Positions 25,442 through 58,689 are shown, numbered from the stretch's first letter. The stretch: DNA of 64,000 nt from an uncultured Ruminococcus sp. (GCA_905202255.1 CAJKRH010000003.1:2466-66465); one strand, 5' to 3'. Numbers and translations are program-made. The notes: generated from the letters alone by a model not told the origin.

Positions 25442-28081
25442 ATGAAAATCAAGGAAAATTCGTTAAGAGTCAATAATCAGCTCTCCCCTGTCATCGACAG
25501 TACGCCCTTTTTCTCATGGGAGCTTGATGGTAGCCCCGCCGAGCATCAGAAAAGCTACAAGGTCACGGTGACGCGCGAAAACGGAAGCGTTGTCTGGACA
25601 TCTGGCACGGTAGAGAGCGAAAAGCGCTGTTATATCCATATGGAGGAGAAAAACGAACCGCTTTCCCGCTATCTCTGCCATGTCGAGATAACGGATGAAA
25701 ACGGAAACAAATCTTCTGCCTGCTCGTCCTTTCGTACAGGAAAAATGGGCGGCGAATGGCAGGCAAAGTGGATAACGGGATATTTTCTTCGCAAGCGCGA
25801 CGATGCGCTCGCAGCCCCTTATCTGCGAAAGGATTTTGCGCTCTCTGGAACGGTAAAGGACGCCATGCTCTATATCTGCGGACTCGGATATTTTGTCTGC
25901 ACGATAAACGGCAAGCGCGTAAACGAGGAATTTCTCTCCACACCGTATACCGATTACAGCAAGCATATTTTCTATCGCGCCTTTGATATAAAAGATAAGC
26001 TTGCGGAGAAAAACGCAATAGGCGTTGTGCTCGGAAACGGGTTTTACAATTGCTTTACGGATGATCCGTGGCAATCCCGCTTCGCACCGTGGCGCGATGT
26101 TCCGAAAATGATATGCGAACTTCATATCGAATACGAAAACGGCGAAAAAGAAATAATCTCGAGCGACCCCTCATGGCAGAGCTCGCGCGGTCCCATCACA
26201 TTCAACGGTATACGCCACGGCGAAGAATACAATGCCAACCTCGAGATGCCGGGCTGGGATACATACGGATATACATGCGGCGAAGGCTGGAAAAATGCGC
26301 GTATGGTTCGTCCCGCAGGCGGTGAGCTTTTGCTGATGGAAATGGAACCGATAACAATCCGCATGCGCCGCCCTGCCGTGCGCATGAAAAATTACGACGG
26401 CAAAACGCTCTTTGATATCGGTCAGAATCAGGCGGGTGTATGCCTGCTCACATTGCGCGGCAAGAAGGGCGACAGGATAACGATAAAATACTGCGACCTT
26501 CTCGATAAGGACGGCAAGCTTACCCAGTGGCCGCTCAGCTGCTTCATAAAAAACTATACATTCCAGACCGAGGTTTATACAAAGAAAAGCGACGAACCCG
26601 AGGTATGGCATTCGGAATTTACATATCACGGCTTCCAGTATGCAGAGATAGACGGCGGAGACGAAAACAGACAGCTCTCCGATGTCGTGGCTCTTTCGCT
26701 TTCAAATAATCTGCGCGACAGAGGCGAATTTACCACCTCGGACGAAACGATAAATAAGGTTCAGAAAATGTGCATAGAGTCTACGCGCTCATGTACCATG
26801 AATACGATAGCTTCCGATGCCGTCCGTGAAAAAACATCGTGGATAGGCGATGCGGGCTTCTCGAGCGAACAGATACTCATAAACTTCGCTTCCGAGCAGT
26901 TTATGAACAGATGGCTGCTTGACCTCCGTGATGCACAGACGCCGGCAGGTGCCGTTCCCTGCGTTGTTCCCTCCACGGGATGGGGCTTCAACTCACTCAA
27001 CGGCCCCGACTGGGCAAGCACCATAATCGATTCCACGGCATTTCTCTACCGTGCCACGGGCGACCTTGCATACCTGAGAGAAAACTACGATATGCTCCGC
27101 CGTCACTGCTCACATATTTCGCAGATGGCTATAGACGGCATAGCAAATTACGGACTGGGCGACTGGTGCGCTCCGTTTGAGGGTGAGGCGATAAGCGTGA
27201 ATATGGGCTCATTCAAGTGTCCCGTCACCGTAACCGATACAGGCTACTATCATACCGCCGTGCGCACGCTCGCACGCTGGGCAAAGCTTCTCGGCAAAAC
27301 AGAGGACGAAAAGAAATATACCGCCCTTGCCGACAGCATAAAGAAAGCATTCCGAAGCAAACTCTATGATGAAAGCACGCATACGGTAAAGGGCAATTGC
27401 CAGACGGCAACAGGCGTTATGATATATCACGGGCTTTGCGAAAAGGACGAATATGCACCGCTCATAGCACGCCTTAAGGAACAGATAGCCGAGCAGAACG
27501 GACATCTTGATTTCGGCGTACTCGGAAACAAAGCCGTTTTCAATGCGCTCGGTATGTGCGGCGAGGTACGCACCGCGCTCGACCTCATAAAGAATCCTAC
27601 TTTCCCGAGCTATAAGCACTGGATAGATATGGGCGCAAATACGCTCTGGGAATGCTGGAACGGTCTCGGCTCGCGAAACCACCATATGTTCTCCGATGTT
27701 TCCGCTTTCTTCTATAAATATATCGGCGGTATCTCGGCAGATGATGACATGCCCGCATATGAGCATATCATTCTCCGCCCTGCTGCCGGTTGCGGCATAA
27801 AAAAGGTGCATTGCTCGGTTGAAACTCCGTACGGAAAGGCAGTAAGCGATTTTGAAAATGACGGAAAGACGCTCCGCCTCTCGCTGACTGTTCCCTCCGG
27901 CTCGCATGCGACACTCTTCCTGCCGATGTATCTCGATGATGTTTTCGAGGGCGCTCCGCATACGCCATTTGCCGAAAAGCTCACGGCAAGCGGCAATGCT
28001 GTGAAATTTGCCCCAGGAGATATGTCGGATATAAAAGCCGAACTCCCATCCGGCGAATATACATTTACAGCAAAAATATAA
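25442..28081 (+). CDS. alpha-L-rhamnosidase, glycoside hydrolase family 78
   Basis: 879 aa. Motifs AAPYLRKDF, YICGLGYF..INGKRV, FDIGQNQAG, GDWCAPFEG and WECWNG..HHMFSDVSAFFYKYIGGI are typical of GH78. Confidence 0.9.
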   Translation: MKIKENSLRVNNQLSPVIDSTPFFSWELDGSPAEHQKSYKVTVTRENGSVVWTSGTVESEKRCYIHMEEKNEPLSRYLCHVEITDENGNKSSACSSFRTGKMGGEWQAKWITGYFLRKRDDALAAPYLRKDFALSGTVKDAMLYICGLGYFVCTINGKRVNEEFLSTPYTDYSKHIFYRAFDIKDKLAEKNAIGVVLGNGFYNCFTDDPWQSRFAPWRDVPKMICELHIEYENGEKEIISSDPSWQSSRGPITFNGIRHGEEYNANLEMPGWDTYGYTCGEGWKNARMVRPAGGELLLMEMEPITIRMRRPAVRMKNYDGKTLFDIGQNQAGVCLLTLRGKKGDRITIKYCDLLDKDGKLTQWPLSCFIKNYTFQTEVYTKKSDEPEVWHSEFTYHGFQYAEIDGGDENRQLSDVVALSLSNNLRDRGEFTTSDETINKVQKMCIESTRSCTMNTIASDAVREKTSWIGDAGFSSEQILINFASEQFMNRWLLDLRDAQTPAGAVPCVVPSTGWGFNSLNGPDWASTIIDSTAFLYRATGDLAYLRENYDMLRRHCSHISQMAIDGIANYGLGDWCAPFEGEAISVNMGSFKCPVTVTDTGYYHTAVRTLARWAKLLGKTEDEKKYTALADSIKKAFRSKLYDESTHTVKGNCQTATGVMIYHGLCEKDEYAPLIARLKEQIAEQNGHLDFGVLGNKAVFNALGMCGEVRTALDLIKNPTFPSYKHWIDMGANTLWECWNGLGSRNHHMFSDVSAFFYKYIGGISADDDMPAYEHIILRPAAGCGIKKVHCSVETPYGKAVSDFENDGKTLRLSLTVPSGSHATLFLPMYLDDVFEGAPHTPFAEKLTASGNAVKFAPGDMSDIKAELPSGEYTFTAKI

Positions 28082-28083
28082 CT

Positions 28084-28118
28084 AAAAAGGAATCCGCAGA
28101 TGATGCGGATTCCTTTTT
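28084..28118. terminator. bidirectional intrinsic terminator
   Basis: AAAAAGGAATCCGCA-GATGA-TGCGGATTCCTTTTT. Confidence 0.8.
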
Positions 28119-28133
28119 AGTATTCAAAACATA

Positions 28134-28643
28134 TCAACTGAAAACCTCTTCATATGGGATATTTCCGTCATCGTCCTTGGCATACCAGTGATAATAGAAG
28201 TCGCGCGGTCTTATCCATTTTTTAAAATCAATGTAGTACTCGGTATCTACCGCTTCTTTCAGTTCATCAAGATTGTTGAAATACATATATTCGTCACTGT
28301 CCAAATCAATCACAAGATATTTTATATAAGTTGCACCGACAAGTCCCAAATCTGATGTATCTTTGCCATTATCCCCGTCGCTTATCTGAATAAAGATATA
28401 TTTATCGTTATAGGCAAAATAAGAAATTCTGTCTTTTGTCGGCTCATGAAGTTCCGCACTGCCGTCCTTTGCGCTTAACTGGTCTATGGAAACATAAAAC
28501 GGACCACGATGAATATAATATCTGCCATCAGCAATCTTAAAATTGTAATCGCTCAACCCCGGTCCCGGAATGCATGAAGTCAAGAGCGTAAAACATATTG
28601 CTGCCAGCAAAACAAAGCCTGTTATATTTTTTAGTTTTTTCAT
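28134..28643 (-). CDS. lipoprotein of unknown function, tandem paralogue 1
   Basis: Start set at MKKLKNITGFVLLAAICFTLLTSC (lipobox). It shares its N-terminus, central ISYFAYNDKYIF.QISDG and C-terminus with the upstream paralogue. Confidence 0.7.
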   Translation of the reverse strand: MKKLKNITGFVLLAAICFTLLTSCIPGPGLSDYNFKIADGRYYIHRGPFYVSIDQLSAKDGSAELHEPTKDRISYFAYNDKYIFIQISDGDNGKDTSDLGLVGATYIKYLVIDLDSDEYMYFNNLDELKEAVDTEYYIDFKKWIRPRDFYYHWYAKDDDGNIPYEEVFS

Positions 28644-28650
28644 AATCATA

Positions 28651-29160
28651 TCAACTGAAAACCTCTTCATATGGAACTTTTCCGTTATCATACTTTACAT
28701 ACCATAAATCATAAAAATCACCCGGTCTTATCCATTTTTTAAAATCAATGTAGTGCTCATTATCTACCGCTTCTTTCAGTTCATCAAGACTGTTGAAATA
28801 CATATATTCATCGCTGTCCAAATCAACCACAAGATATTTTATATATGTTGCACCGACAAGCCCGGAATCAGAATCCATTTTTCCCTCACAATTACTGCCA
28901 TCGCTTATCTGAAGAAAAATATATTTATCGTTATAAGCAAAATAAGAAATTCTGTCCTCGGTATCACTGTGATGAGCGGTACCATCTTTCATTTTCTTTT
29001 GTATGAATCGTATATCTCTTGCAACAAGAAGAATTTCATATCTTCCATCAACAATCTTGAAGCTATATTCGCTCAACCCGGGTCCCACACACGAAGCCAA
29101 AAGCGTAAAACATATTGCTGCCAACAAAACAAAGCCTGTTATATTTTTTAGTTTTTTCAT
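28651..29160 (-). CDS. lipoprotein of unknown function, tandem paralogue 2
   Basis: Start set at MKKLKNITGFVLLAAICFTLLASC. It is a paralogue of 28134..28643. Confidence 0.7.
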   Translation of the reverse strand: MKKLKNITGFVLLAAICFTLLASCVGPGLSEYSFKIVDGRYEILLVARDIRFIQKKMKDGTAHHSDTEDRISYFAYNDKYIFLQISDGSNCEGKMDSDSGLVGATYIKYLVVDLDSDEYMYFNSLDELKEAVDNEHYIDFKKWIRPGDFYDLWYVKYDNGKVPYEEVFS

Positions 29161-29177
29161 ATATTTTCCTTTCCGTA

Positions 29178-29657
29178 TCATTCCGCAAGCAGTGGCTTCA
29201 GGTGTTGTCTTTCGCTCTTCTCTTTAGCTTTTGCAAGCAAAATATATCCTGTGGCAAAAGCCAGATTTATAAGCGAGCCATATATGGGATAAGTTTCAAT
29301 TTCACTTTCCATAATTATAACAAAAGGAATAATATACATCGCATAAGAAATTACCGCATCAATAATTACGCCTACTGCAAAGGGTATATATGACTTTTTA
29401 AACACAAGGCAATATGATGCTATACGCCAGATAATGCATATTATGGATAATGCCAAAAATAACGAATTTAATTTTACAGTAGTAATATCCCACTCAACAA
29501 ATCCCTGAAAAAATGCCACATACAGTCTGTCGCCAAAAGGATGTCTGAAAAGCGCCACCCCGAATGCAACAAATAAGACTGACTTAATAGATGCCAAAAG
29601 GTAAATCGTAGATAGCATGATAAGAATTAAGTGTTTTAATTTTTTATTAGTCGACAT
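29178..29657 (-). CDS. polytopic membrane protein, unknown function
   Basis: 159 aa with 4-5 hydrophobic segments, AT-rich, first gene of the three-gene minus-strand cluster. Confidence 0.55.
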   Translation of the reverse strand: MSTNKKLKHLILIMLSTIYLLASIKSVLFVAFGVALFRHPFGDRLYVAFFQGFVEWDITTVKLNSLFLALSIICIIWRIASYCLVFKKSYIPFAVGVIIDAVISYAMYIIPFVIIMESEIETYPIYGSLINLAFATGYILLAKAKEKSERQHLKPLLAE

Positions 29658-29934
29658 ATTTTCATATTGTCACCTTATTATCTTTTCCGAGCATTATATT
29701 GTTTTTATGATATTGTTTGATTTATTATACCATTAAATGGAAGCAAATGCAAGTCTATTTATTATTTTGCATCATTAAAAGTTAAAAAAACAGCGTGTAA
29801 ATTGCCTTTAATTCACATCATAATATGCATTTCCCCATCATTCGTCAAAATTTGAGTGCAAGCTGTTGCAAAAAAGAATGGATAATGGTATAATTGAAAT
29901 ATCGTAAGAATCGGCTTTTAAAGGAGTTTAATAT

Positions 29935-30420
29935 ATGAAAATTTCAGACGCAATCGAAAAGATGATTGTATTTTGCAACGGCAATCTGCACGATATCAAT
30001 CATTTTCTCAAAGTATGGGCATTTACCAAGAATATCGGTGAACTCGAGGGGCTTGATGCGCAAACGCAGGAGACGCTCGAGCTTACTGCGGTAGTGCATG
30101 ATATTTCCTGTCCGCTCTGCCGCGAGAAATACGGCAATGTGGACGGAAGGAATCAGGAAAAAGAGAGTGCTCCGCTTGTTGAAGCATTTTTCGCGGGTGA
30201 GGACTGCAATGCCGATGTTGCACGCATCTCATGGCTTGTTTCCCATCATCATACCTACACGGATGTGGACGGCATCGACCATCGAATCCTGCTCGAAGCG
30301 GATTTCCTTGTCAATGCGGGTGAGAGCGGCTATTCAAGAGCGGCGATTGAAAGCGCAGAAAAGCAATTTTTCCGCACCGCCGCAGGGATTCGTCTTTTGA
30401 ACAGTATATATTTATCATAA
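29935..30420 (+). CDS. HD-domain phosphohydrolase-like protein
   Basis: H..(VVHD)..HHH pattern: NHFLKVW, TAVVHDIS, WLVSHHHTY and EADFLVN. Confidence 0.7.
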   Translation: MKISDAIEKMIVFCNGNLHDINHFLKVWAFTKNIGELEGLDAQTQETLELTAVVHDISCPLCREKYGNVDGRNQEKESAPLVEAFFAGEDCNADVARISWLVSHHHTYTDVDGIDHRILLEADFLVNAGESGYSRAAIESAEKQFFRTAAGIRLLNSIYLS

Positions 30421-42051: not shown

Positions 42052-42998
42052 AACCTATTTTTCGTATTTTGAAGATGCTTTCTTGCTACAAAATCCCTAC
42101 GGTAAAGAAAGTGTTTATCCCATCACCACCTGAAACAAATTAAATAACTAACGATAACGCCACACAGCCCCTTGATTCAAAAAGGATCAAGGGGCTGTTG
42201 TTATCTCGCCACACGCCCCAAATTCGGGCGCGTGACGGCTTTCTGATTTGCGTGCGGGAAAACGCTCCTCCGAGCCATTCAAAGCAGACACAGGCGATTC
42301 CAGCGGGCGTGCGAGGGGGATGCGGCACATAGTATGATTTCAATGTGTTGCGCCTCAGACTTGAATCGATTATCGGCAGTTATACAATGGATTTCACGAG
42401 TATTTTCAAGGGTCGATTTTCAAGCGGGAGAAAGGCAGTGCGTCAAACGCCCTGCCGGATTCACAGCGGACGGCAGAGCCGACCGCATTTTCTCGCGTTT
42501 TGACCGCATTTGCTCGTTTTTTTGCGCATATCGGTTAGAAGAAGGCAGTGTGTCAAGCACGCGTATAATCGCGGAATCGGTGTGTCAACCATACGCATGA
42601 TTCCGCAAAACAGGCGGATTTTTCGCTTGGTTGCGGGCGTTTCCCGTGTGTCAGGTATACACACAAAAAAATCAATATCTCTGCAACCAAGGGGGTAGTG
42701 TTTGTATCAGGTGAACCATGGGTGGGTTCACCATGAACCCCCAATGTAAACTATACAAGAGAAAGAATATATAGAAAAACAGAAAAAGAACAACAAAGAG
42801 AACGCCCGTTTCTCCGTTGCGCCGCGAATCGTTTCCTGAGTGCGCCGACGGGAATCGGCCGATCCGGTTTTCTTTTTCTGCTTTTTCTTTGTCCGAAAAA
42901 AGATTTCGTGAAAGATATTTTTTGATTCGATTATCAAAGCTAAGAGAGTGCCGACCGTTTTTCTGCAAAAAAGTTTGATAATTTTTTCGTCCAAACGC

Positions 42999-43230
42999 GA
43001 AAAAAGTGTGGAATATAGGGTGAGAGGAACTTTCCCTGAAAAAAAGTTTCCGCCGACAGGTTGTAAAATCTGAAAAAAGTGTGGAATACAGGGTGAGGAA
43101 GTTTTTTCAAAAAACTTTTCGCTCAAACCACAAAAAAGTGTGGAATACAGGGTGAGAGGACTTTCCCTGAAAAAAAGTTCCCACTGAAGGGCTATCAAAC
43201 CCGAAAAAAGTGTGGAATACAGGGTGAGGG
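42999..43230 (+). repeat. four iteron-like direct repeats (~28 nt) spaced 60-73 bp apart
   Basis: GAAAAAAGTGTGGAATA[T/C]AGGGTGAG(A)GG occurs at 42999, 43072, 43131 and 43203. Units 1 and 3 also share the following ACTTTCCCTGAAAAAAAGTT. Confidence 0.85.
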
Positions 43231-44310: not shown

Positions 44311-45513
44311 ATGCCACAAGCAAAAAATCATCTGACCGCCAGCACGCAAGCCAAGAACGGAAGCCTCTATGCGGTCATCCAGTACAAGGACGAGAACGGA
44401 AAGCGGAAAAACAAATGGAAGTCCCTCGGGCTGAAAGAAGGAGCTTCCAAAGCCAAAATCAACGCCGCCATGCGCGAGGCGGTCAATGACTTCGAGAAAG
44501 AGCTGACCGAAATTCTTACGCGCTCACAGAATCCAGATGCGGATATGCCGGTCTTCGAGTACATGGTCAAATGGCTCGGCAGCGTCCAGCCGAGCCTGCA
44601 AATCAACACCTATCGCAGTTACCACAACATGATCTACGGCAGAATCAAACGCTACTTCGGTCCGAAACCCATCACCATCGCAAGCCTGCGCCCGAACCAG
44701 ATCGACGAGTTCTATCAGTCCATCTTCGATGAAGGCATGGTCGCCAACACGGTCATTCACTATCACGCAGTCATGCGCCGCGCGTTCCAGCAGGCGTACA
44801 AGAAAGAAATCCTCTCTGCCAATCCCTTTGACCGCGTGGAACGCCCAAAGAAAAACAAATTCTTCGGTCAGAATCTCTCGGAAGAAGAACTGCTGACACT
44901 GCTCAGTCTCGCAAGATCGGAAGCCATCTACCCGGCAATCATCCTTGCAGGGTGCATGGGACTGCGACGGAGTGAAGCACTCGGCATGCGGTGGTCACGC
45001 ATTGACATGGAGAAGCGCGAGGTTCTGCTCGACACCAAGGTTGTAGAAGTCGAGATTGACGGCGAGAAAATTCTCAAACCGATTGAGGAAATGAAGAACT
45101 CCAGCAGTCGCAGAAGCCTGCCGATCCCCGCGCCGGTCTATGAAATGCTGGTCGAACAAAAGGCACAACAGGACCTCTACCGCCGTATGTTCAAGGGCAG
45201 TTACAACCGCGCATACGACGATTATGTGTGCACGGACAAGCTGGGCAACCTTCTGACACCGCGATATGTCACGCTCCGCTTCTCGCAGGTGCTTGAGAAG
45301 AACGGCATGCGGCACATCCGCTTCCACGACCTGCGACACACCTTCGCCAGCATTCTCATCAACAAGGACATCCCGCTGTTCAATGTATCGAAATACCTTG
45401 GTCACTCGGACATCAGTACAACGGCAAATATCTATGCGCACCTGGACAAGAGCGGAAAAGACATCAGTGCGGAAACCATCAGCGCGCTGTTTGATGATCG
45501 GCATCACGACTAA
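44311..45513 (+). CDS. tyrosine-type site-specific recombinase/integrase
   Basis: N-terminal arm-binding-like SLYAVIQYKDENGKRKNKWKSLGL. Catalytic residues in GLRRSEALGMRW, HDLRHTFAS and LGHSDISTTANIYAHL. Confidence 0.92.
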   Translation: MPQAKNHLTASTQAKNGSLYAVIQYKDENGKRKNKWKSLGLKEGASKAKINAAMREAVNDFEKELTEILTRSQNPDADMPVFEYMVKWLGSVQPSLQINTYRSYHNMIYGRIKRYFGPKPITIASLRPNQIDEFYQSIFDEGMVANTVIHYHAVMRRAFQQAYKKEILSANPFDRVERPKKNKFFGQNLSEEELLTLLSLARSEAIYPAIILAGCMGLRRSEALGMRWSRIDMEKREVLLDTKVVEVEIDGEKILKPIEEMKNSSSRRSLPIPAPVYEMLVEQKAQQDLYRRMFKGSYNRAYDDYVCTDKLGNLLTPRYVTLRFSQVLEKNGMRHIRFHDLRHTFASILINKDIPLFNVSKYLGHSDISTTANIYAHLDKSGKDISAETISALFDDRHHD

Positions 45514-45546: not shown

Positions 45547-46083
45547 ATGGAACAGATCATCAGCGCGGATGCGGCAAGAGCGTACCTGCATATATCCAAA
45601 CGAAAATTCCTGTTTATGCTGCAAAACGGCTATATCCGATACGAGGACAACGGCAACAAAACGCATCGGTACTCATTGCGGATGTGCGATGTGGAAGCCC
45701 TGCGGAAGGAAATGACCGATCATCCCGAACGCTTTGCCGACCTGAATGGGCGGTTTACGGCGCAAAGAAACAAGCCGCCGACACCGACCATTGTACTGTC
45801 GCAGGAGGAAGCGAGAAAGTTACGCGAATACATAGCAAAATGTTGGAGCAAATATCCCGATGCCTTGCCAAGCAAGCTGGCGGCAGAGCTGACCGGCTTG
45901 ACGGTGGGAACGCTCAATCGCTACGTGGCAAGAGGCAACATCTTCGGTGCGGTGGTCGGCGGAAAAGTGCTGATCAGCAAGCAAAGCCTGATCGGACATA
46001 TCGCCTCTCCGGAGACGGCGCGCAAAGTCGGGACAGAGCAACTGCGAAATTTGCTTGCAGGGTATAAAAAAGAGAAAAAATAA
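45547..46083 (+). CDS. double-HTH (excisionase-family-like) DNA-binding protein, full-length copy
   Basis: 178 aa. Two HTH_17-like segments: ..AARAYLHISKRKFLFMLQNGYIRY.. and ..AAELTGLTVGTLNRYVARGNIFGAVVGGKVLISKQSL.. Confidence 0.75.
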   Translation: MEQIISADAARAYLHISKRKFLFMLQNGYIRYEDNGNKTHRYSLRMCDVEALRKEMTDHPERFADLNGRFTAQRNKPPTPTIVLSQEEARKLREYIAKCWSKYPDALPSKLAAELTGLTVGTLNRYVARGNIFGAVVGGKVLISKQSLIGHIASPETARKVGTEQLRNLLAGYKKEKK

Positions 46084-46300: not shown

Positions 46301-46528
46301 ATGAGTGTGAGTTACAAAAAGCTGTGGAAGCTATTGATTGATAAGGACATGAAGAAAAAAGATCTCCAGTTGGCTACCGGTCTCAGTTCTTCAACCATTG
46401 CAAAAATGACAAAGAACGAATCGGTCAATACAGAAGTGCTTGTCAAAGTCTGCACGGCGCTCGGCTGCGATATAGGCGACATTATGGAAGTGATTCCGGA
46501 TATCAAATCTGACACGGAGAAACGCTAA
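46301..46528 (+). CDS. XRE-family HTH protein (controller-like, 75 aa)
   Basis: LLIDKDMKKKDLQLATGLSSSTIAKMTKNESVNTEVLVKVCTALGCDIGDIMEV is a Cro/C1-type HTH. Its stop overlaps the next start (TAATG). Confidence 0.8.
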   Translation: MSVSYKKLWKLLIDKDMKKKDLQLATGLSSSTIAKMTKNESVNTEVLVKVCTALGCDIGDIMEVIPDIKSDTEKR

Positions 46529-49500
46529 TGGAACTTATCGATAATATCAACAAAACATTGAAAGATGACCTGGCAGATTCGATACACAGCGGGAGTAAAA
46601 TATCCATTGCCGCAGCTTGCTTTTCGATATACGCCTTTCAAGCGTTAAAAGATCAACTTACACAAATAGATGAGCTGCGTTTTATTTTCACCTCCCCGAC
46701 ATTCATCGCCGAGAAAGCCAAAAAAGAACGCCGGGAGTTTTATATTCCTCGCCTTACGCGAGAAAGAAGCCTTTATGGAACGGAGTTTGAAATAAGGCTA
46801 CGCAATGAGTTGACTCAAAAAGCCATTGCTAAAGAATGTGCAGATTGGATCCGAGCGAAAGTTACTTTCAAATCCAACATCAGTGATAAATCCATCCAAG
46901 GGCAATTAGTGGTTGACGATGCAGGCTATACACCAATCAATGGCTTTACGACAGTTGAACTCGGCTGCGAAAAAGGAAACGCAATGAACACAACCATCGT
47001 AAAAGATGCTTCTCTTGCTAAAACGCTCTTGGCAGGATTTAATGATATTTGGTCTGACAGCAAATTGCTTCAAAATGTGACAGACGAAATTATCGATAGC
47101 ATCTCCACTGCTTACAACGAGAATTCACCCGAATTCATCTACTTTGTAACGCTCTATAATATCTTCAACGAATTCCTTGAAGATATTTCAGAAGATGTTT
47201 TGCCGAATGAAGCGACCGGATTTAAGGAAAGTAAAATCTGGGGAATGCTTTATAACTTCCAAAGGGATGCTGCATTGGCGATTATCAATAAACTTGAAAA
47301 GTTCAACGGATGCATCCTGGCAGACAGCGTGGGATTGGGCAAAACCTTCACCGCACTGGCGGTTATTAAGTACTACGAAAACCGCAACAAATCGGTTCTC
47401 GTCCTCTGCCCTAAAAAACTGGCGAACAACTGGAACACCTATAAGGATAACTATGTCAATAATCCAATCGCCGCTGACCGTCTTCGCTATGATGTGCTTT
47501 ATCATACTGACCTGTCGAGAAACCACGGTTCCTCCAATGGTTTAGACTTGGATCGCTTGAACTGGGGCAATTATGATCTGGTCGTAATCGATGAATCACA
47601 CAACTTCAGAAACGGCGGGAAATCCGGCGGCGATTCGGAAAAAGAAAACAGATATCTCCGACTTTTGAACAAAGTCATCAGAACAGGTGTAAAGACCAAG
47701 GTTTTAATGCTCTCGGCAACGCCGGTAAACAATCGTTTTAATGATTTGAAAAATCAGCTTGCGCTTGCTTATGAGGGTAATTCAAACCTGATCAACGAAA
47801 AACTGAACACCAAAAGCACAATTGAGGAAATATTCCGTCAGGCTCAGCGGGCGTTTAACACATGGAGCAAACAAGATCCTCGCAGCAGAACCACCGAAAG
47901 CCTCCTGAAAATGCTGGACTTCGATTTCTTTGAGGTACTGGATTCTGTTACGATTGCCCGTTCAAGAAAGCACATTGAAAAATACTATGATACCGCAGAT
48001 ATCGGTTCTTTTCCGGAAAGGCTTAAGCCAATTTCCTTGTATCCGCCACTGACAGATCTGCGCAGTGCGATCAACTATAACGAAATATTTGAGCAGCTGA
48101 TGCTTTTGAATCTTGCAATTTATACTCCATCCCACTACATTCTCGACAGCAAAAAAAGCAAATACGCTGATTTGTTTGACGATGAAAAGGTTAATGTGGG
48201 CTTTACACAGGCGAACCGAGAGCAAGGCATCAGGCGTTTGATGGCAATCAACCTGATGAAACGAATGGAAAGCTCCGTCGCATCGTTCAGACTCACATTG
48301 AGCCGGATTGACAATCTGCTGAAAACAACGATATCAACCATTGACAGCTTCAATCAGTATTCCGATACCAACGTCAATCTGGAAGACATCTCTCAGCTGA
48401 ACGATTTTGATCTTGATGACCAAAACGATGATGAACTCTTTTCTTTCGGGAAAAAGGTCAAAATCAATCTGAGCGATATGGACTATACATCATGGCGCAG
48501 AGATCTTGCAAAGGACAAAGAAACCATTGAACTTTTGACTGTCATGGTTGCTGATATTACACCGGAGCATGACAGCAAATTGCAGGAGCTTTTCAGAGTT
48601 CTCTCAAATAAGATTGAGCATCCCATCAATGACAATAATCGAAAGGTTATTATTTTCACCGCATTTTCTGATACCGCAGAGTACCTTTATGAGAATGTGA
48701 GCAGGTTTGTTCTCCAAAACTATCATTTGAACACCGCAATGGTAACAGGCTCGGTTGACGGCCGTTCAACCGTTCCTCGTCTGCACTGCGATATGAATAC
48801 CGTGCTGACTTGCTTCTCTCCGATCTCTAAAGATAAAGAACTGCTGATGCCCGGTGATACGACAGAAATAGATGTGCTGATTGCAACCGACTGTATTTCC
48901 GAAGGTCAGAACCTGCAGGATTGCGACTATCTCATCAATTACGATATTCACTGGAATCCCGTTCGCATCATTCAGCGGTTCGGGCGTATCGACCGTATCG
49001 GAAGCCGCAATAAAGTCATTCAGCTGGTAAACTTCTGGCCAAATGTTACACTTGACGAATATATAGACCTCAAGGCACGTGTTGAAACCCGTATGAAGAT
49101 CGTTGATATGACCGCAACCGGAGACGACAACATATTGCAAGAAGAAAAGTCCGATCTGGAATACAGGAAAGCACAATTGAAGCGCCTCCAGGAAGAAGTC
49201 GTTGATATCGAGGAAATGTCCTCCGGCATCTCCATCATGGATCTGGGCTTAAATGAATTCCGGCTCGACCTGCTGGAATATGTCAAAGCAAATCCCAATC
49301 TTGACAAAACACCGTTCGGACTTCACGCCGTAGCCGCTTCAAATGATGAATGCCCTCCGGGCGTTGTGTTCGTGCTGAAGAACCGATCAAACAGCATCAA
49401 TATCGACCACCAGAATCGGCTGCATCCGTTCTATATGGTGTATATTGCCGATGATGGCGAAGTTGTTTGCGACCACCTTTCGCCCAAAGCAATGCTGGAC

Positions 49501-49755
49501 AAGCTCCGCTATTTGTGCAAAGGTAAAGCCACGCCGATTCCGGAACTGTACCGTCGGTTCAATAAGGAAACGAAAGACGGACGCAATATGCAAGCAACCT
49601 CCGCATTGCTTGGAGATGCGATTGCATCCATTATCGAAACCAAAGAAGAAAGCGAGATTGATACATTCCTTGGCGGTGGTCAGATGAGCTTTTTGTCAAA
49701 CGAAATCAAGGGGCTGGATGATTTTGAACTGATCTGCTTCTTGGTCGTAAAATAA
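46528..49755 (+). CDS. SNF2-family helicase with ~230-aa N-terminal extension (possibly an inactivated PLD-like N-domain)
   Basis: Motif I ILADSVGLGKT, motif II VVIDESHNFRN, and C-terminal lobe ATDCISEGQNLQDCDYLINYDIHWNPVRIIQRFGRIDRIGS. I could not find an HxK..D motif in the N-terminal region. Confidence 0.85.
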   Translation: MELIDNINKTLKDDLADSIHSGSKISIAAACFSIYAFQALKDQLTQIDELRFIFTSPTFIAEKAKKERREFYIPRLTRERSLYGTEFEIRLRNELTQKAIAKECADWIRAKVTFKSNISDKSIQGQLVVDDAGYTPINGFTTVELGCEKGNAMNTTIVKDASLAKTLLAGFNDIWSDSKLLQNVTDEIIDSISTAYNENSPEFIYFVTLYNIFNEFLEDISEDVLPNEATGFKESKIWGMLYNFQRDAALAIINKLEKFNGCILADSVGLGKTFTALAVIKYYENRNKSVLVLCPKKLANNWNTYKDNYVNNPIAADRLRYDVLYHTDLSRNHGSSNGLDLDRLNWGNYDLVVIDESHNFRNGGKSGGDSEKENRYLRLLNKVIRTGVKTKVLMLSATPVNNRFNDLKNQLALAYEGNSNLINEKLNTKSTIEEIFRQAQRAFNTWSKQDPRSRTTESLLKMLDFDFFEVLDSVTIARSRKHIEKYYDTADIGSFPERLKPISLYPPLTDLRSAINYNEIFEQLMLLNLAIYTPSHYILDSKKSKYADLFDDEKVNVGFTQANREQGIRRLMAINLMKRMESSVASFRLTLSRIDNLLKTTISTIDSFNQYSDTNVNLEDISQLNDFDLDDQNDDELFSFGKKVKINLSDMDYTSWRRDLAKDKETIELLTVMVADITPEHDSKLQELFRVLSNKIEHPINDNNRKVIIFTAFSDTAEYLYENVSRFVLQNYHLNTAMVTGSVDGRSTVPRLHCDMNTVLTCFSPISKDKELLMPGDTTEIDVLIATDCISEGQNLQDCDYLINYDIHWNPVRIIQRFGRIDRIGSRNKVIQLVNFWPNVTLDEYIDLKARVETRMKIVDMTATGDDNILQEEKSDLEYRKAQLKRLQEEVVDIEEMSSGISIMDLGLNEFRLDLLEYVKANPNLDKTPFGLHAVAASNDECPPGVVFVLKNRSNSINIDHQNRLHPFYMVYIADDGEVVCDHLSPKAMLDKLRYLCKGKATPIPELYRRFNKETKDGRNMQATSALLGDAIASIIETKEESEIDTFLGGGQMSFLSNEIKGLDDFELICFLVVK

Positions 49756-49774
49756 AATCAAAGGAGGCATGGAT

Positions 49775-50380
49775 ATGCTTGGATTCCCACAGAAAACAGA
49801 ATTACGAAAACCACTACATAAAAAAGTGATTTTTGAAAAGCTTCAACTGAACACCTTACAGCAAGATCGTGTGGATGCAGACATTTCACGCCTCTATTTT
49901 GTCAATGAGATCTCGCCTTACAGCGTAGGGATTACAGATGGAGAAGCCGTCAAGGCGTTTTATGTGATCCTGGTCTGCCTCAAGCGGAAGGATTATGACG
50001 ATAAAACGATCTCGATGCTCTTTCGCTTGATCGACAACAAAATGATTCTCGTTCTGCAATATGAAACCGAAAGCCGGGTGGCGATCTTTCATGGGAAACT
50101 CATTCAAACGGATTGGAAGCCAACAGACGCATTTTCCTTCTCCCTGCAAGGGCTGAACCTTGATTCAGTATGGAACAACCTAATCATTCAAATCGGGGAT
50201 ATTCACCCTGAAAGCGGACGCTCCATTGAAGAACAGATTGCACTTGACGAACAACGAAAAAAGATAGAAAAGGAAATTGCGTCTCTCGAAAAAATGGCAC
50301 GAGCGGAAAAACAGCCGAAAAAGAAGTTTGAACTGGTGCAACGGATTAGAGCTTTAAAAGAAAATCAAAATTCACCATAA
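49775..50380 (+). CDS. DUF4391-like protein
   Basis: MLGFPQKTELRKPLHKKVIFEK... and ...SLQGLNLDSVWNNLIIQIGDI match my memory of DUF4391 proteins (LP..T...IPK..F; L.GLN.D.VY.N...QI), followed by a C-terminal coiled-coil tail. Start set at the second ATG, 7 nt after AAGGAGG. Confidence 0.6.
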   Translation: MLGFPQKTELRKPLHKKVIFEKLQLNTLQQDRVDADISRLYFVNEISPYSVGITDGEAVKAFYVILVCLKRKDYDDKTISMLFRLIDNKMILVLQYETESRVAIFHGKLIQTDWKPTDAFSFSLQGLNLDSVWNNLIIQIGDIHPESGRSIEEQIALDEQRKKIEKEIASLEKMARAEKQPKKKFELVQRIRALKENQNSP

Positions 50381-50393
50381 GGAGGTTGTCGTT

Positions 50394-50912
50394 ATGTTTC
50401 TATATAAATTGCTACTCACTCTAAACGCAACATCATGGATGGCGATCATATATGTAATAAAAGAAGGTTGGACAATTGGGAAAGTGCCAAATCATTTGTT
50501 TGGAATACTGCTTTTGATAATTCCGATCTTTCTGTCATGGATTTCGCTTATTATGACTCGTTTTTTAGGAATTGAATCTTTAGTTGGTAATTGCAAAGAG
50601 TTTAGCCTTGCAGATGGGGAGTTTCTACCGATATATTTGGGGTATTTCTTTGTTTCCGTGGGAGTTTCTGACCTCTTTACAATGGCAGTGGTATACCTCA
50701 TAGTATTTGTCTTTACCTTTTTATCACAAACACAATACTATAATCCCATATATCTGCTTTTTGGCTATCATTACTACCACGTCACGACTGAAAATGGTAC
50801 AAGTATTTTTATTATCAGAAAAGGTCCAGTTATTCGAAATTCCGCAGAGCTAAGATTCGATCATTTGCATCGTTTGAACAATACAACTTTTATTGAGAGG
50901 AAGACAAAATGA
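50394..50912 (+). CDS. small ~4-TM membrane protein (KwaA-like candidate)
   Basis: 172 aa with AAGGAGG 8 nt upstream. Hydrophobic segments lie at about residues 3-24, 34-57, 76-92 and 96-112, followed by a ~60-aa soluble tail. About 33% GC by hand count of the first 60 nt. Confidence 0.6.
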   Translation: MFLYKLLLTLNATSWMAIIYVIKEGWTIGKVPNHLFGILLLIIPIFLSWISLIMTRFLGIESLVGNCKEFSLADGEFLPIYLGYFFVSVGVSDLFTMAVVYLIVFVFTFLSQTQYYNPIYLLFGYHYYHVTTENGTSIFIIRKGPVIRNSAELRFDHLHRLNNTTFIERKTK

Positions 50913-51754
50913 GTAATATATGTGTAAAATTAAAGCAACGTGAAAACAGCAAGTATCGACTGATGCTTTCATCAGATGAAACTATCTTTCCGGTATTTGA
51001 TCCGGAAAGTGCTTCAACATCACCATACACTCCGGGAGCAACGCTTGAAGATGATGATTGGTTTTGCATTCAGAATGTTCGGGATACTGAATATAGCATA
51101 GATTTGCTTTCTGAAACCTTTACCACCGTAGACTTGGCTTTACTCACTCATGCAGAATTTGAAAGGATAGATTACCTGTTTGCATTTGATGATAGATTCA
51201 TCTTCTTTCAGAATATATCCAAGTCAAATTTGATTGCACAAAAAAGAATTTTCCGCTTTGGAGAAGAATTCAAATACAGAACCAACTGCTCGGAAATTGT
51301 TATCAGAGAAATTCCGGATGCAATTTATGATAAAACCACCGACAGCCTATATTTCCGTAAACTCGAATCTATCACCAGTATATTCAGGGGGATAGATATG
51401 CTTTATCGCGAAGCCACGCAAGAAGAAACAGATTCTTTTCTTGCAAATGATTTTATCAACTTAAAGGATGACTATTCCGGCAGCAAAGTAAAAACCGCCA
51501 ACAGAAAAAGGATTGCTCTTGCAGCAAAAACCCTGTCGGAGCTTGGAGAAACCGATCGAAAGAACATCTTTGCCTACATAGGCGAATACTGTCCCGAATT
51601 GAAAGTTTCAGAAAATGCTTTTGAAGTTGGTTCTGAAAATGAATTGAAAATGCTGCTGTATGGTATCGAGCAGAGGTTTTATACTACTCCGGTTGGTGGA
51701 GAGAAACGCCTTGCCAATTCGGTTATTACATTGAATCAAGGAGGACAAGCATAA
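50909..51754 (+). CDS. 281-aa soluble protein, DUF4868/KwaB-like candidate
   Basis: ATGA overlap with the 4-TM gene. The segment ..IREIPDAIYDKTTDSLYFRKLESITSIFRGIDMLYREATQEETDSFL.. resembles the DUF4868 core as I remember it. Not verified. Confidence 0.5.
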   Translation: MSNICVKLKQRENSKYRLMLSSDETIFPVFDPESASTSPYTPGATLEDDDWFCIQNVRDTEYSIDLLSETFTTVDLALLTHAEFERIDYLFAFDDRFIFFQNISKSNLIAQKRIFRFGEEFKYRTNCSEIVIREIPDAIYDKTTDSLYFRKLESITSIFRGIDMLYREATQEETDSFLANDFINLKDDYSGSKVKTANRKRIALAAKTLSELGETDRKNIFAYIGEYCPELKVSENAFEVGSENELKMLLYGIEQRFYTTPVGGEKRLANSVITLNQGGQA

Positions 51755-53737: not shown

Positions 53738-55036
53738 TTGAAGCAAATAACAGAAATAACACGAAGAGATATCTTCGCTTTGTTTCAATATGGCATGGAT
53801 ATAGACGAATTGTGGGAAACCAAACGAGTACGCTATGGCTATTATGGCAACCTAAGCGAGATTGATTTTCTCAAACGGATTTATGACCTCAAAGAACTTC
53901 CGAGTTATGATAATCGTTTTGAAGATGCCGAGGGCGACATATGGCAGCACACGATAAATAACGACGATTATGAAAATGGTTGGATTTTTGAGGACGATAG
54001 ATTTGAACTCTTGAATGGCGACGATGAAGTTCTGCTGAAGTTCTTATGTGCTGTTTTTCATCCTGCGGTTAGGTATGAAAAAGGTTATTGGAAAGAAATT
54101 CTTGATGCAGTAAACGGACTGCTTCACAACGACGGCTATGAGCTTTATCCGGAAAGCAAAATATCCGGACGAGATGTGTATGGTTGGCGTAAATACGACC
54201 AGGAGGAAAGTTCTTTGTTTGTCCCTTTCTCACAAAGGCACGAAAAGGCAATAAAGGCAAAAGAGCTTAAACTCTCGTTGAGTATGAAAATCCGAAACCA
54301 AATTTACAAACTTATCGAAAGATACTCAACCGTATATCGTGAAACCGATGATACTGGATGGAACTATGATATTACTACGAGTGAATGTATCTTTAGAGAT
54401 ATTTCACAGTTCTATAAGCCGAAGTGCTTTGACGCAAGCAATAATTATGTTGAAACCTCGGATATGGAGCAATTTATTCTGCATAATTCACCATTCTGCG
54501 TTCTTGATGTGATTGAGTTGTGCGAAAAGTACAATGCCGAAAGTGATTATTCGTCTCAGATGAATACACTTTTTAAGTTAAATTCGGTTGGATACAGATT
54601 AGAACAAGGGAGAGTTGTAAGTACCTTCGAAGTCCCTATTGACAAAAAGGTTGTATCGGATATTTCCGAACAAGGTTTGAAGGAACTTATAGAAGAAGCA
54701 GATAACTATTATCGAGCAGGCAATAAACAGATTGCAGTAGAGAAAATATGGGATGCTTTTGAGAGACTGAAAACCTTTTATTCTCCGGCACTTAATAAGG
54801 CATCATCTGCGAACAAAATAATTGATGATATGAGTTCTTCAGACCCTCACTATAAGGCTATGTATGAAGACGAGTTCAAGGCACTAACGAACATTGGCAA
54901 TGGGTTCAGAATTCGCCATCACGAAACGACCAAGGTTGATATTACGGACAATCGACAATACGACTATTTTTACAAGCGTTGTCTTGCCTTGATTTCTGTC
55001 GCTATCCTATACTTGGAAGGAGGAAGTCACAAATGA
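53738..55036 (+). CDS. 432-aa AbiJ-like protein: conserved N-terminal module plus HEPN-like C-terminus (candidate)
   Basis: TTG start 8-10 nt after AAGGAAGGTG. The N-terminus reads ..FLKRIYDLKELPSYDNRFEDAEGDIWQHTINNDDYENGWIFEDDRFELLNGDDEVLLKFLCAVFHPAVR.. The C-terminus reads ..IWDAFERLKTFY...LTNIGNGFRIRHHETTK.. About 33% GC in the first 60 nt. Confidence 0.5.
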   Translation: MKQITEITRRDIFALFQYGMDIDELWETKRVRYGYYGNLSEIDFLKRIYDLKELPSYDNRFEDAEGDIWQHTINNDDYENGWIFEDDRFELLNGDDEVLLKFLCAVFHPAVRYEKGYWKEILDAVNGLLHNDGYELYPESKISGRDVYGWRKYDQEESSLFVPFSQRHEKAIKAKELKLSLSMKIRNQIYKLIERYSTVYRETDDTGWNYDITTSECIFRDISQFYKPKCFDASNNYVETSDMEQFILHNSPFCVLDVIELCEKYNAESDYSSQMNTLFKLNSVGYRLEQGRVVSTFEVPIDKKVVSDISEQGLKELIEEADNYYRAGNKQIAVEKIWDAFERLKTFYSPALNKASSANKIIDDMSSSDPHYKAMYEDEFKALTNIGNGFRIRHHETTKVDITDNRQYDYFYKRCLALISVAILYLEGGSHK

Positions 55037-58348: not shown

Positions 58349-58437
58349 TGGCGGAGAGGAAGGGATTCGAACCCTTGTGCGCTTTCGCGCAAACTGATTT
58401 CGAGTCAGCCCCGTTATGACCACTTCGATACCTCTCC
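58349..58437 (-). tRNA. tRNA-Ser (anticodon CGA), class II with long variable arm, CCA encoded
   Basis: The minus strand reads GGAGAGGTATCGAAGTGGTCATAACGGGGCTGACTCGAAATCAGTTTGCGCGAAAGCGCACAAGGGTTCGAATCCCTTCCTCTCCGCCA. It has a 7-bp acceptor stem GGAGAGG/CCTCTCC, anticodon loop CTCGAAA, T-loop GGTTCGAATCC and a hairpin variable arm. Confidence 0.92.
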
Positions 58438-58596: not shown

Positions 58597-58639
58597 TGAT
58601 TTCGAGTCAGCCCCGTTATGACCACTTCGATACCTCTCC
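58597..58639 (-). repeat. orphan 5' portion of tRNA-Ser, from the 5' end to the anticodon loop; right att-like junction
   Basis: 43 nt identical to 58395-58437. Identity begins at TGATTTCGAGT. It lies about 50 nt downstream (minus strand) of a consensus promoter. Confidence 0.85.
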
Positions 58640-58689
58640 GTATATAAGAATGAGGCAAAACCGATTTATGCGCCTCACTTTGCTAAAGC

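Follow-up and report, generated by a model that had tools for sequence, protein, structure and literature searches.

A four-gene restriction-modification unit combining a SNF2-family ATPase and a DUF4391 protein with type III Mod and Res

The DNA analyzed here (the window) is a stretch of 64,000 nucleotides from an uncultured Ruminococcus sp.; all coordinates are window positions, except for those that carry the number of a related locus (L001 and so on). It encodes an operon in which the genes for a SNF2-family ATPase, a protein of the DUF4391 family, a type III DNA methyltransferase (Mod), and a type III restriction subunit (Res) follow each other in this order. These four genes are a conserved, vertically coherent restriction-modification (R-M) unit, and their association goes far beyond chance. 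The gaps between the DUF4391 and mod genes and between mod and res are insertion slots for unrelated defense genes. The cassette is a widespread extension of a classical enzyme family, with a mechanism that we can so far only infer.

The evidence for the type III affiliation comes from Mod and Res. As both are homologs of the EcoP15I subunits, the operon can be assigned to a four-gene type III lineage. Mod matches EcoP15I Mod (4zcf_A) with E=2.5e-50 and 6k0w_B with E=1.8e-56, contains the Pfam N6_N4_Mtase domain, and is recognized by the PADLOC profile MTase_III (E=2.8e-204). Res matches EcoP15I Res (4zcf_C) with E=3.6e-72 and PADLOC REase_III with E=3.5e-290; against the NCBIfam type III endonuclease model, it scores 387 bits, which is below the equivalog cut-off of 564 bits. 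Its Pfam domains, ResIII and RE_endonuc, correspond to a superfamily 2 (SF2) ATPase followed by a C-terminal PD-(D/E)xK endonuclease, and the sequence contains the GTGKT motif at residue 130 and DEPQ at residue 259 (numbered in the long open reading frame), as well as a PD...ETK nuclease motif. Intact ATPase motifs are found in both the SNF2 protein and Res, whereas Res is the only one with an intact nuclease motif. Mod includes a hypervariable target-recognition region (TRD; approximately residues 245 to 445) with a mean identity of 0.23, and sequence specificity is confined to this swappable region. Thus, the operon has the Mod homology and the Res architecture of type III enzymes and lacks their two-subunit-only composition. 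The original prediction had placed the SNF2/DUF4391 pair upstream of a type III R-M system; EcoP15I-like Mod and Res are indeed encoded downstream, but not directly adjacent, as three defense-type genes are interleaved.

The four-gene association was examined from two ends. A scan anchored on DUF4391, with one genome per species in GTDB, yielded 78 loci with 29 to 76% identity, which were annotated with the window proteins as queries. A SNF2 gene lies directly upstream in 62 of the 64 loci with enough upstream sequence (63, if L039, with its overlapping open reading frame calls, is counted), and Mod and Res are found downstream in 52 of 56, the exceptions looking truncated or decayed. A scan of metagenomes anchored on Res gave 80 loci (52 to 81% identity), 35 of them with at least 7.5 kb of upstream sequence; SNF2 and DUF4391 are present in 33 of these 35, or in 34 once L169, which has a divergent, Pfam-confirmed DUF4391, is resolved. 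With both anchors, the order SNF2-DUF4391-...-Mod-...-Res is kept in approximately 90% of the loci or more, and it spans Bacillota, Pseudomonadota, Bacteroidota, and Spirochaetota, down to 23% identity. In PLSDB, 117 plasmid records carry the SNF2 N-terminal domain. A bare contiguous cassette, in which the annotated plasmid regions list a helicase-related protein, DUF4391, a methyltransferase, and a type III endonuclease in this order, is found on plasmids of Escherichia coli, Paraburkholderia (23% identity in the N-terminal domain), Vibrio vulnificus, Enterococcus faecium, and Weissella. The E. coli plasmid pHS30-1 carries it at positions 151905 to 160933 of NZ_CP029493.1 (L083:12001-21029). 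In E. coli, the cassette is rare, being encoded in 10 of 5426 complete genomes and mostly on plasmids. The statement, in the original prediction, that a SNF2-type helicase, DUF4391, an adenine methyltransferase, and Res recur together is strongly supported, with both anchors, across phyla, and on plasmids. Some loci depart from this pattern. In the deletion derivative L130 (L130:1805-8971), a 5' stub of the SNF2 gene is directly followed by unrelated genes. On Bacillus cereus plasmids such as pMRY14-0057_1 (L086:6143-19876) and in the metagenome locus L134:2132-13147, the genes for DrmA and its DUF1998 partner are located immediately ahead of the cassette, which suggests a hybrid of the DISARM core and the four-gene system.

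Co-variation of the four proteins was compared over 72 complete loci as the Spearman correlation of pairwise identities. The coefficients for SNF2-Res (0.83), SNF2-DUF4391 (0.82), and Mod-Res (0.72) indicate that the four genes are inherited as one unit. The Mod TRD, in contrast, is uncorrelated with every other component (rho of approximately 0). Among the 11 pairs of loci whose DUF4391 proteins are more than 90% identical, 8 have TRDs that are less than 50% identical; as near-identical DUF4391 proteins go with unrelated TRDs, DUF4391 is not a matched sequence reader. Such a role, with the reader matched to the specificity of Mod, was considered and rejected on the missing TRD correlation. 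When the correlation with Res is taken into account, the partial correlation of DUF4391 with SNF2 is 0.62 and that with the Mod core is 0.05, whereas SNF2 and the Mod core show a modest partial correlation of 0.29. DUF4391 thus co-evolves with the SNF2 protein, rather than with the specificity region of Mod, and is probably its partner, the partial correlations being the best available evidence for this assignment.

The SNF2 protein consists of an N-terminal domain (residues 1 to 235), the first ATPase lobe (approximately 236 to 420), an insert (approximately 421 to 690), the second lobe (approximately 691 to 845), and a C-terminal domain (846 to 1075). All three motifs named in the original prediction were located: ILADSVGLGKT at residues 263 to 273 (nucleotides 47314 to 47346), DESHNFRN at residues 355 to 362 (47590 to 47613), and QRFGRIDRIGS at residues 816 to 826 (48973 to 49005). 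Pfam recognizes SNF2-rel_dom at residues 254 to 407 and Helicase_C at 696 to 825, and motifs I, II, III, and VI (GLGKT, DESH, SATP, and QRFGRIDRIG) show no variation among 72 relatives, except at I821, which is conserved in 69 of them. The nearest solved relatives in the PDB search are ISWI, SNF2, RapA, and CHD1L, all of them double-stranded-DNA translocases. The Pfam domains, the PDB matches, and the invariant motifs are those of a SNF2-family ATPase. The best full-length family is PADLOC C3a139, "HKD+Snf2" (E=3.6e-129), which matches the C-terminal domain alone (2.4e-19) and not the N-terminal domain alone. Both terminal domains are family specific, the N-terminal one being at least 58% identical across 60 gut relatives.

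Scanned alone, the first ~235 residues have no match in Pfam, the PDB sequences, or PADLOC. The original prediction had found no HKD nuclease motif in this region, and the family agrees: an HxK at the expected place is seen in 0 of 67 members, so that the catalytic HxK(x)4D signature of HKD nuclease-helicase fusions is missing. The family has Met or Gln in place of the catalytic His and Phe or Gln in place of the Lys; in the window protein, these positions correspond to Q124 and Q126. Other residues are kept: G146, F171, and W175 in 67 of 67 members and N151 in 65 of 67. An alignment of PLD domains, assembled from the real sequences printed by the PDB search, was compared with the SNF2 family alignment by hhalign. 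Residues 125 to 176 align to the HxK...D...GSxN...F..W part of the PLD domains with a local score of 28.7, a P value of 8.5e-4, and a probability of 24%. In the controls, shuffled columns scored 12.1 +/- 2.4 (0 of 200 reached 28.7), the reversed alignment scored 13.1, and the other domains of the same SNF2 protein gave P values of 0.05 to 0.3. The original prediction had called the domain unexplained; the profile comparison points to a degenerate PLD-like fold. We conclude with moderate confidence that it is a PLD-like domain that is no longer able to cut.

The second protein of the cassette (open reading frame from 49769 or 49775 to 50380) had been described as DUF4391-like, which its Pfam match confirms: PF14335 scores 93.5 bits (E=2.3e-26), well above its cut-off of 29.9 bits, residues 4 to 198 spanning profile positions 1 to 230 of 232. 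An AlphaFold2 model (mean predicted local distance difference test score [pLDDT] of 83.8 and predicted template modeling score of 0.73) consists of an alpha/beta domain, approximately residues 12 to 145 of the 203-residue open reading frame, followed by a C-terminal two-helix hairpin with a conserved ARAEKQPKKKFE stretch at its turn. Family alignments show an N-terminal (L/F)P..T....(P)K peptide, an IPxP strand, and an E-(K/R)-Q at the hairpin turn to be conserved family-wide, and they reveal no conserved acidic/basic constellation typical of an enzyme. Foldseek searches with the model found no relative in PDB or BFVD. A PD-(D/E)xK assignment was rejected, since the family at large does not retain D36, D38, E47, and K72. 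DUF4391 is the fastest-evolving of the four proteins, with a mean pairwise identity of 0.44, compared to 0.70 for SNF2, 0.69 for Res, and 0.57 for Mod, and the family comprises approximately 1,650 clusters at 50% identity. In line with the original prediction, which described a family with no assigned function, full-text literature searches brought up no functional discussion of DUF4391 or PF14335. Some loci encode two tandem DUF4391 proteins. A diversified subfamily of at least 38 clusters at 90% identity (354 to 389 residues) carries a C-terminal ASCH (PUA-like) domain; such fusions are encoded in L030:9998-11110, L035:5070-6194, L174-L178, and L076, and the subfamily is normally found inside complete SNF2-...-Mod-...-Res operons. 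ASCH domains are nucleic acid binders, and in restriction systems, PUA-like relatives of theirs serve as readers of modified bases. The fusion suggests that a DUF4391 adaptor would sit on nucleic acid and may check its modification state.

The two slots are occupied in approximately 70% of the loci, the one between DUF4391 and Mod (slot 1) in 80 of 113 and the one between Mod and Res (slot 2) in 88 of 129. Slot 1 contains TIR/ThsB-like proteins, PDC-S66, PDC-S20, QatA, PifA, SpbK, AbiH, KAP NTPases, SMODS with SLATT, SieB, and Kiwa-like pairs; slot 2 contains RhuM/PDC-S05, AbiJ, Abi_C, Schlafen-type ATPases, 23S_rRNA_IVP, SduA_C, GmrSD, and YhcG. These are typical defense genes that are unrelated between loci and freely replaced. 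In the window, KwaA-like and KwaB-like genes (50394 to 51754) sit between the DUF4391 and mod genes, and an AbiJ-like gene splits mod from res; none of these embedded genes had been mentioned in the original prediction. PADLOC detects KwaA with E=1.2e-11 and KwaB with E=1.1e-14, and it is from PADLOC only that the Kiwa assignment of this pair derives: the KwaA-like protein scores 17.5 bits against an NCBIfam cut-off of 100, and the KwaB-like protein has no Pfam match, including DUF4868. The same Kiwa-like pair occupies the same slot in L001.

How SNF2 and DUF4391 might act can be considered against the background of the classical enzymes. These are two-gene systems that need no helper. They hemimethylate an asymmetric site, and their ATP-requiring cleavage depends on two unmethylated sites in inverse orientation; communication between such sites by ATP-triggered one-dimensional diffusion is a textbook example. 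Assistance or regulation of restriction by SNF2 and DUF4391 is an inference, and we put the probability at roughly one half that the pair assists Mod and Res on unmodified DNA as a motor and its adaptor. The two proteins would form a complex in which SNF2 may dimerize through its dead PLD-like domains, by analogy with MtsD and SauUSI (discussed below), and Mod2Res, bound to incoming DNA where its sites are unmethylated, would recruit this complex. Translocating along the double strand at the expense of ATP, SNF2 would then help the otherwise passively sliding type III enzyme, whether by driving or extending the communication between sites or by clearing bound proteins. Res would make the cut, and methylation by Mod would shield the host from the whole machine. 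A broader version, which we offer as tentative and rather doubtful, envisages a dual-motor class of restriction systems: a PLD-dimerized SNF2 protein, coupled by DUF4391 and sometimes by an ASCH reader, would make the type III enzyme, which otherwise diffuses passively and strictly needs two sites, actively translocating or add a modification checkpoint, and the operon would be a two-slot platform of backup defenses (Kiwa, TIR, AbiJ, RhuM), perhaps triggered when phages inhibit the restriction complex.

Several observations weigh against the assistance of Mod and Res by a SNF2/DUF4391 motor-adaptor. In L120 (L120:200-5943) and L166 (L166:300-6093), which are independent deletion derivatives, a 5' stub of the SNF2 gene is directly followed by intact mod and res genes, from which it follows that Mod and Res can persist, and may work, alone. 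L010 encodes DUF4391, Mod, and Res and has no SNF2. In L079 (L079:228-4417), a DUF4391 gene (Pfam E=1.2e-53) adjoins those for a Ser/Thr protein kinase (PADLOC mad6/PD-T4-6-like) and a sigma-70 region-2 protein, and no SNF2, Mod, or Res was detected beside it, so that the family has a different context there. DUF4391 has no fold match, and the label "adaptor" was deduced from its missing catalytic residues. Linkage alone can inflate co-variation figures such as those given above, and the physical tie of SNF2/DUF4391 to Mod or Res is a predicted one. As for the PLD-like head, its assignment derives from one profile comparison, with a small PLD alignment and the above hhalign probability of 24%; neither the domain by itself nor its family profile had HMMER matches in Pfam, the PDB sequences, or PADLOC, and an AlphaFold2 run with 25 close homologs gave a pLDDT of 36.7 and no usable model.

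Three other explanations deserve consideration. SNF2 and DUF4391 could control the methyltransferase, loading or activating Mod or gating modification versus restriction in the way that MtsA and MtsB do for MtsC. In MANTIS, the ATPase MtsA and the small protein MtsB are both required for hemimethylation by the site-specific adenine methyltransferase MtsC (bioRxiv 10.64898/2026.09.23.753747), which provides a precedent. The placement of SNF2 and DUF4391 ahead of Mod in the operon and the partial correlation of SNF2 with the Mod core fit such control, whereas the near-zero value for DUF4391 and the Mod core does not, and SNF2 is not an AAA+ loader. Besides, Mod is homologous over its full length to EcoP15I Mod, and the latter needs no helpers to bind and methylate DNA. 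The deletion derivatives L120 and L166 speak to the same point, as mod and res are intact there after the loss of SNF2/DUF4391; if methylation depended on that pair, their persistence would be lethal as long as Res stayed active. We consider control of Mod to be quite unlikely. Alternatively, SNF2 and DUF4391 could be a second, nuclease-free arm in the style of BREX or DISARM, which uses the Mod mark for self-recognition and, with no need for Res, keeps unmethylated DNA from being replicated. Pairs of a SNF2 helicase and an adenine methyltransferase are known from class 1 DISARM, type 3 BREX, and ARMADA; DrmA/DrmB genes lie directly upstream of the cassette on the B. cereus plasmids and in L134; and, if its head is indeed a dead PLD domain, the SNF2 protein cannot be the cutter. 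A few loci (L030 and L035) retain SNF2 and DUF4391(-ASCH) and have no Mod or Res. However, loci of this kind look truncated, the DUF4391-ASCH subfamily being normally found in complete operons, and the co-variation of Res with SNF2 is no weaker than that with Mod. Moreover, since neither SNF2 nor DUF4391 tracks the TRD, any reading of methylation must pass through Mod. A nuclease-free arm is improbable in our estimate. A stand-alone two-gene system of SNF2 and DUF4391-ASCH, considered for L030 and L035, was rejected as a general variant, because the fusion subfamily is normally in full operons; the downstream genes of these two loci are unrelated to each other, which also counts against it.

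It could also be argued that SNF2 and DUF4391 are an unrelated two-gene system, or a maintenance function of a mobile element, that hitch-hikes beside a type III R-M system, given that defense genes cluster in islands and that this very operon gathers unrelated defense cargo. The data disfavor this explanation. The gene order is kept across four phyla in the great majority of the loci, down to 23% identity, and all four genes co-diverge, whereas the true slot cargo swaps freely; hitch-hiking is accordingly very improbable.

The coordinates of the operon and of the genes preceding it are listed in Table 1. From the helix-turn-helix (HTH) gene to res, neighboring genes overlap or are separated by no more than ~40 nucleotides (with the called starts), and they therefore form one operon. 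The 3' end of the HTH gene, including its stop codon, overlaps the start of the SNF2 gene. Of 93 loci, 23 have a homolog of this gene immediately ahead of SNF2, other small HTH genes occupy that position on E. faecium and V. vulnificus plasmids, and the 75-residue protein may be the controller of the operon.

Table 1. Features of the SNF2-DUF4391-Mod-Res operon and of its upstream neighborhood in the window
Feature	Position	Strand	Basis or remark
Tyrosine integrase	44311-45513	+	Island context, upstream of the operon; Pfam
HTH_17 excisionase-like protein	45547-46083	+	Upstream of the operon; Pfam
XRE-type HTH protein, 75 aa	46301-46528	+	Open reading frame; Pfam HTH_3/HTH_26 on the identical gene in L170-L173
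SNF2-family ATPase, 1075 aa	46528-49755	+	Pfam, PADLOC C3a139, motifs
N-terminal domain of the SNF2 protein	46528-47232	+	Probably a catalytically dead PLD-like domain; hhalign
DUF4391 protein, 201 aa from the conserved MLGFP start	49775-50380	+	Pfam PF14335
KwaA-like membrane protein, 172 aa (cargo slot 1, gene 1)	50394-50912	+	PADLOC KwaA; hydrophobic segments
KwaB-like protein, 281 aa (cargo slot 1, gene 2)	50909-51754	+	PADLOC KwaB
Type III Mod, N6-adenine methyltransferase, 660 aa	51754-53736	+	Pfam, PADLOC, EcoP15I Mod homology
AbiJ-like protein (cargo slot 2)	53780-55036	+	AbiJ_NTD3 and AbiJ_NTD4; C-terminal part matches PDC-S32
Type III Res, 1037 aa	55033-58146	+	Pfam, PADLOC, EcoP15I Res homology

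The plus-strand genes between 44.3 and 58.1 kb form an integrase-bearing island of a human-gut bacterium, the G+C content being 0.40 to 0.46 over 46 to 58 kb, compared to approximately 0.47 to 0.53 in the flanks. An identical SNF2 protein and the same gene order are found on contigs of human-gut metagenomes. A megablast search of the island against E. coli genomes gave no match. A scan for promoters and terminators returned counts at the level of shuffled sequence. The integrase is preceded by small genes, and directly ahead of these lies a match to the Rfam dinG RNA motif (RF03082; 43422 to 43507, plus strand; 63.1 bits with a gathering score of 46.9). The intergenic region at 42956 to 43229, upstream of the island, contains three direct copies of a ~70-nucleotide unit (63 to 86% identity) with the shared core GAAAAAAGTGTGGAATA(C/T)AGGGTGAG. 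On the other side, a tRNA-Ser(CGA) gene (58349 to 58437, minus strand) lies 200 nucleotides past the end of res, and a 98% identical copy of its 5' half is found ~200 nucleotides beyond it (58597 to 58645). This half-copy may have been left behind by an integration or a deletion; toward the integrase side of the island, no repeat of the tRNA-Ser 3' end could be identified. Elsewhere in the window, the G+C content dips sharply to 0.345 at 28000 to 30000, compared to ~0.48 in the rest, and this may be another acquired segment.

A large natural lineage that almost always adds a SNF2 translocase and an adaptor to Mod and Res would show how the diffusion mechanism of type III enzymes can be extended or regulated, and DUF4391 would gain its first function if the proposed role is confirmed. 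The lineage belongs with the methylation-based multi-ATPase defenses BREX, DISARM, MANTIS, and ARMADA, whose restriction steps are poorly understood, and, as a 9-kb cassette that E. coli plasmids carry naturally, it offers a small and experimentally tractable test case. All four genes already appear as named neighbors in the output of annotation pipelines, so their adjacency is visible in databases; we found no description of the cassette as a system in the literature, where mention in subscription journals, supplementary tables, or REBASE is possible. Automated tools would report a separate "type III R-M," "Kiwa," and "AbiJ" here and would miss the two extra core genes and the organization in a single operon.

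Among the known systems, the type III enzymes EcoP15I, EcoP1I, and StyLTI are similar to this lineage in having homologous Mod and Res subunits, which the PADLOC MTase_III and REase_III profiles and the NCBIfam type III endonuclease model match over the full length, a Res that combines a SF2 ATPase with a PD-(D/E)xK nuclease, and a Mod with a central variable specificity region. In contrast to them, the lineage of the window almost always has SNF2 and DUF4391 upstream, and its mod and res genes are commonly separated by defense genes. Insertion of unrelated defense genes between R-M subunit genes is also seen with PrrC in EcoprrI and with RhuM, Abi, and YhcG in type I hsd loci, and RhuM, AbiJ, Abi_C, YhcG/DUF1016, and 23S_rRNA_IVP are common to the hsd cargo and the slots described here. 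For PrrC, functional coupling of the cargo to the host restriction system has reportedly been demonstrated; the host operon here differs in being a type III derivative with two defined slots. BREX-related systems, ARMADA, Hma, AbiR, and MANTIS were all considered as the identity of the cassette and rejected, as they have different gene sets.

The original prediction compared the SNF2 protein to DrmD of DISARM. In class 1 DISARM, a SNF2-family ATPase is likewise encoded beside an N6-adenine methyltransferase in a methylation-based defense, and DrmA/DrmB genes abut the cassette in the cases given above. The support for the analogy is loose, however: the SNF2 protein scores only 160 bits against the NCBIfam DrmD cut-off of 610, with a match to the second ATPase lobe only, and class 1 DISARM has no DUF4391 or Res. 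No DrmA, DrmB, or DrmC is encoded in the window, and among 158 related loci, DrmA/DrmB are found in L134 only.

Of the architectures studied so far, that of MtsD from MANTIS (formerly Gao_RL) comes closest to the SNF2 protein. This PLD-SF2 effector is a dimer with a single active site, to which both PLD domains contribute and which is centered on His122, and its structure resembles that of SauUSI (bioRxiv 10.64898/2026.09.23.753747). As in these proteins, an N-terminal domain, which is of the PLD type there and probably PLD-like here, precedes a SF2/SNF2-like ATPase, and the equivalent of the catalytic His at residue 122 is residue 124 of the window protein. Both systems are also methyltransferase-directed multi-ATPase defenses with a small accessory protein. 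Unlike MtsD, SauUSI, and "HKD+Snf2" proteins, however, the window family has no HxK in 67 of 67 members, and its N-terminal domain alone scores nothing against C3a139. Neither the DUF499 AAA+ ATPase (MtsA) nor a MtsB-type small protein (DUF3780/DUF3870) has a Pfam or PADLOC match among the operon proteins. Finally, in contrast to MANTIS and Gao_RL (BREX-related, type 2), the methyltransferase of this operon is a type III Mod, and the nuclease is supplied by a separate Res protein.

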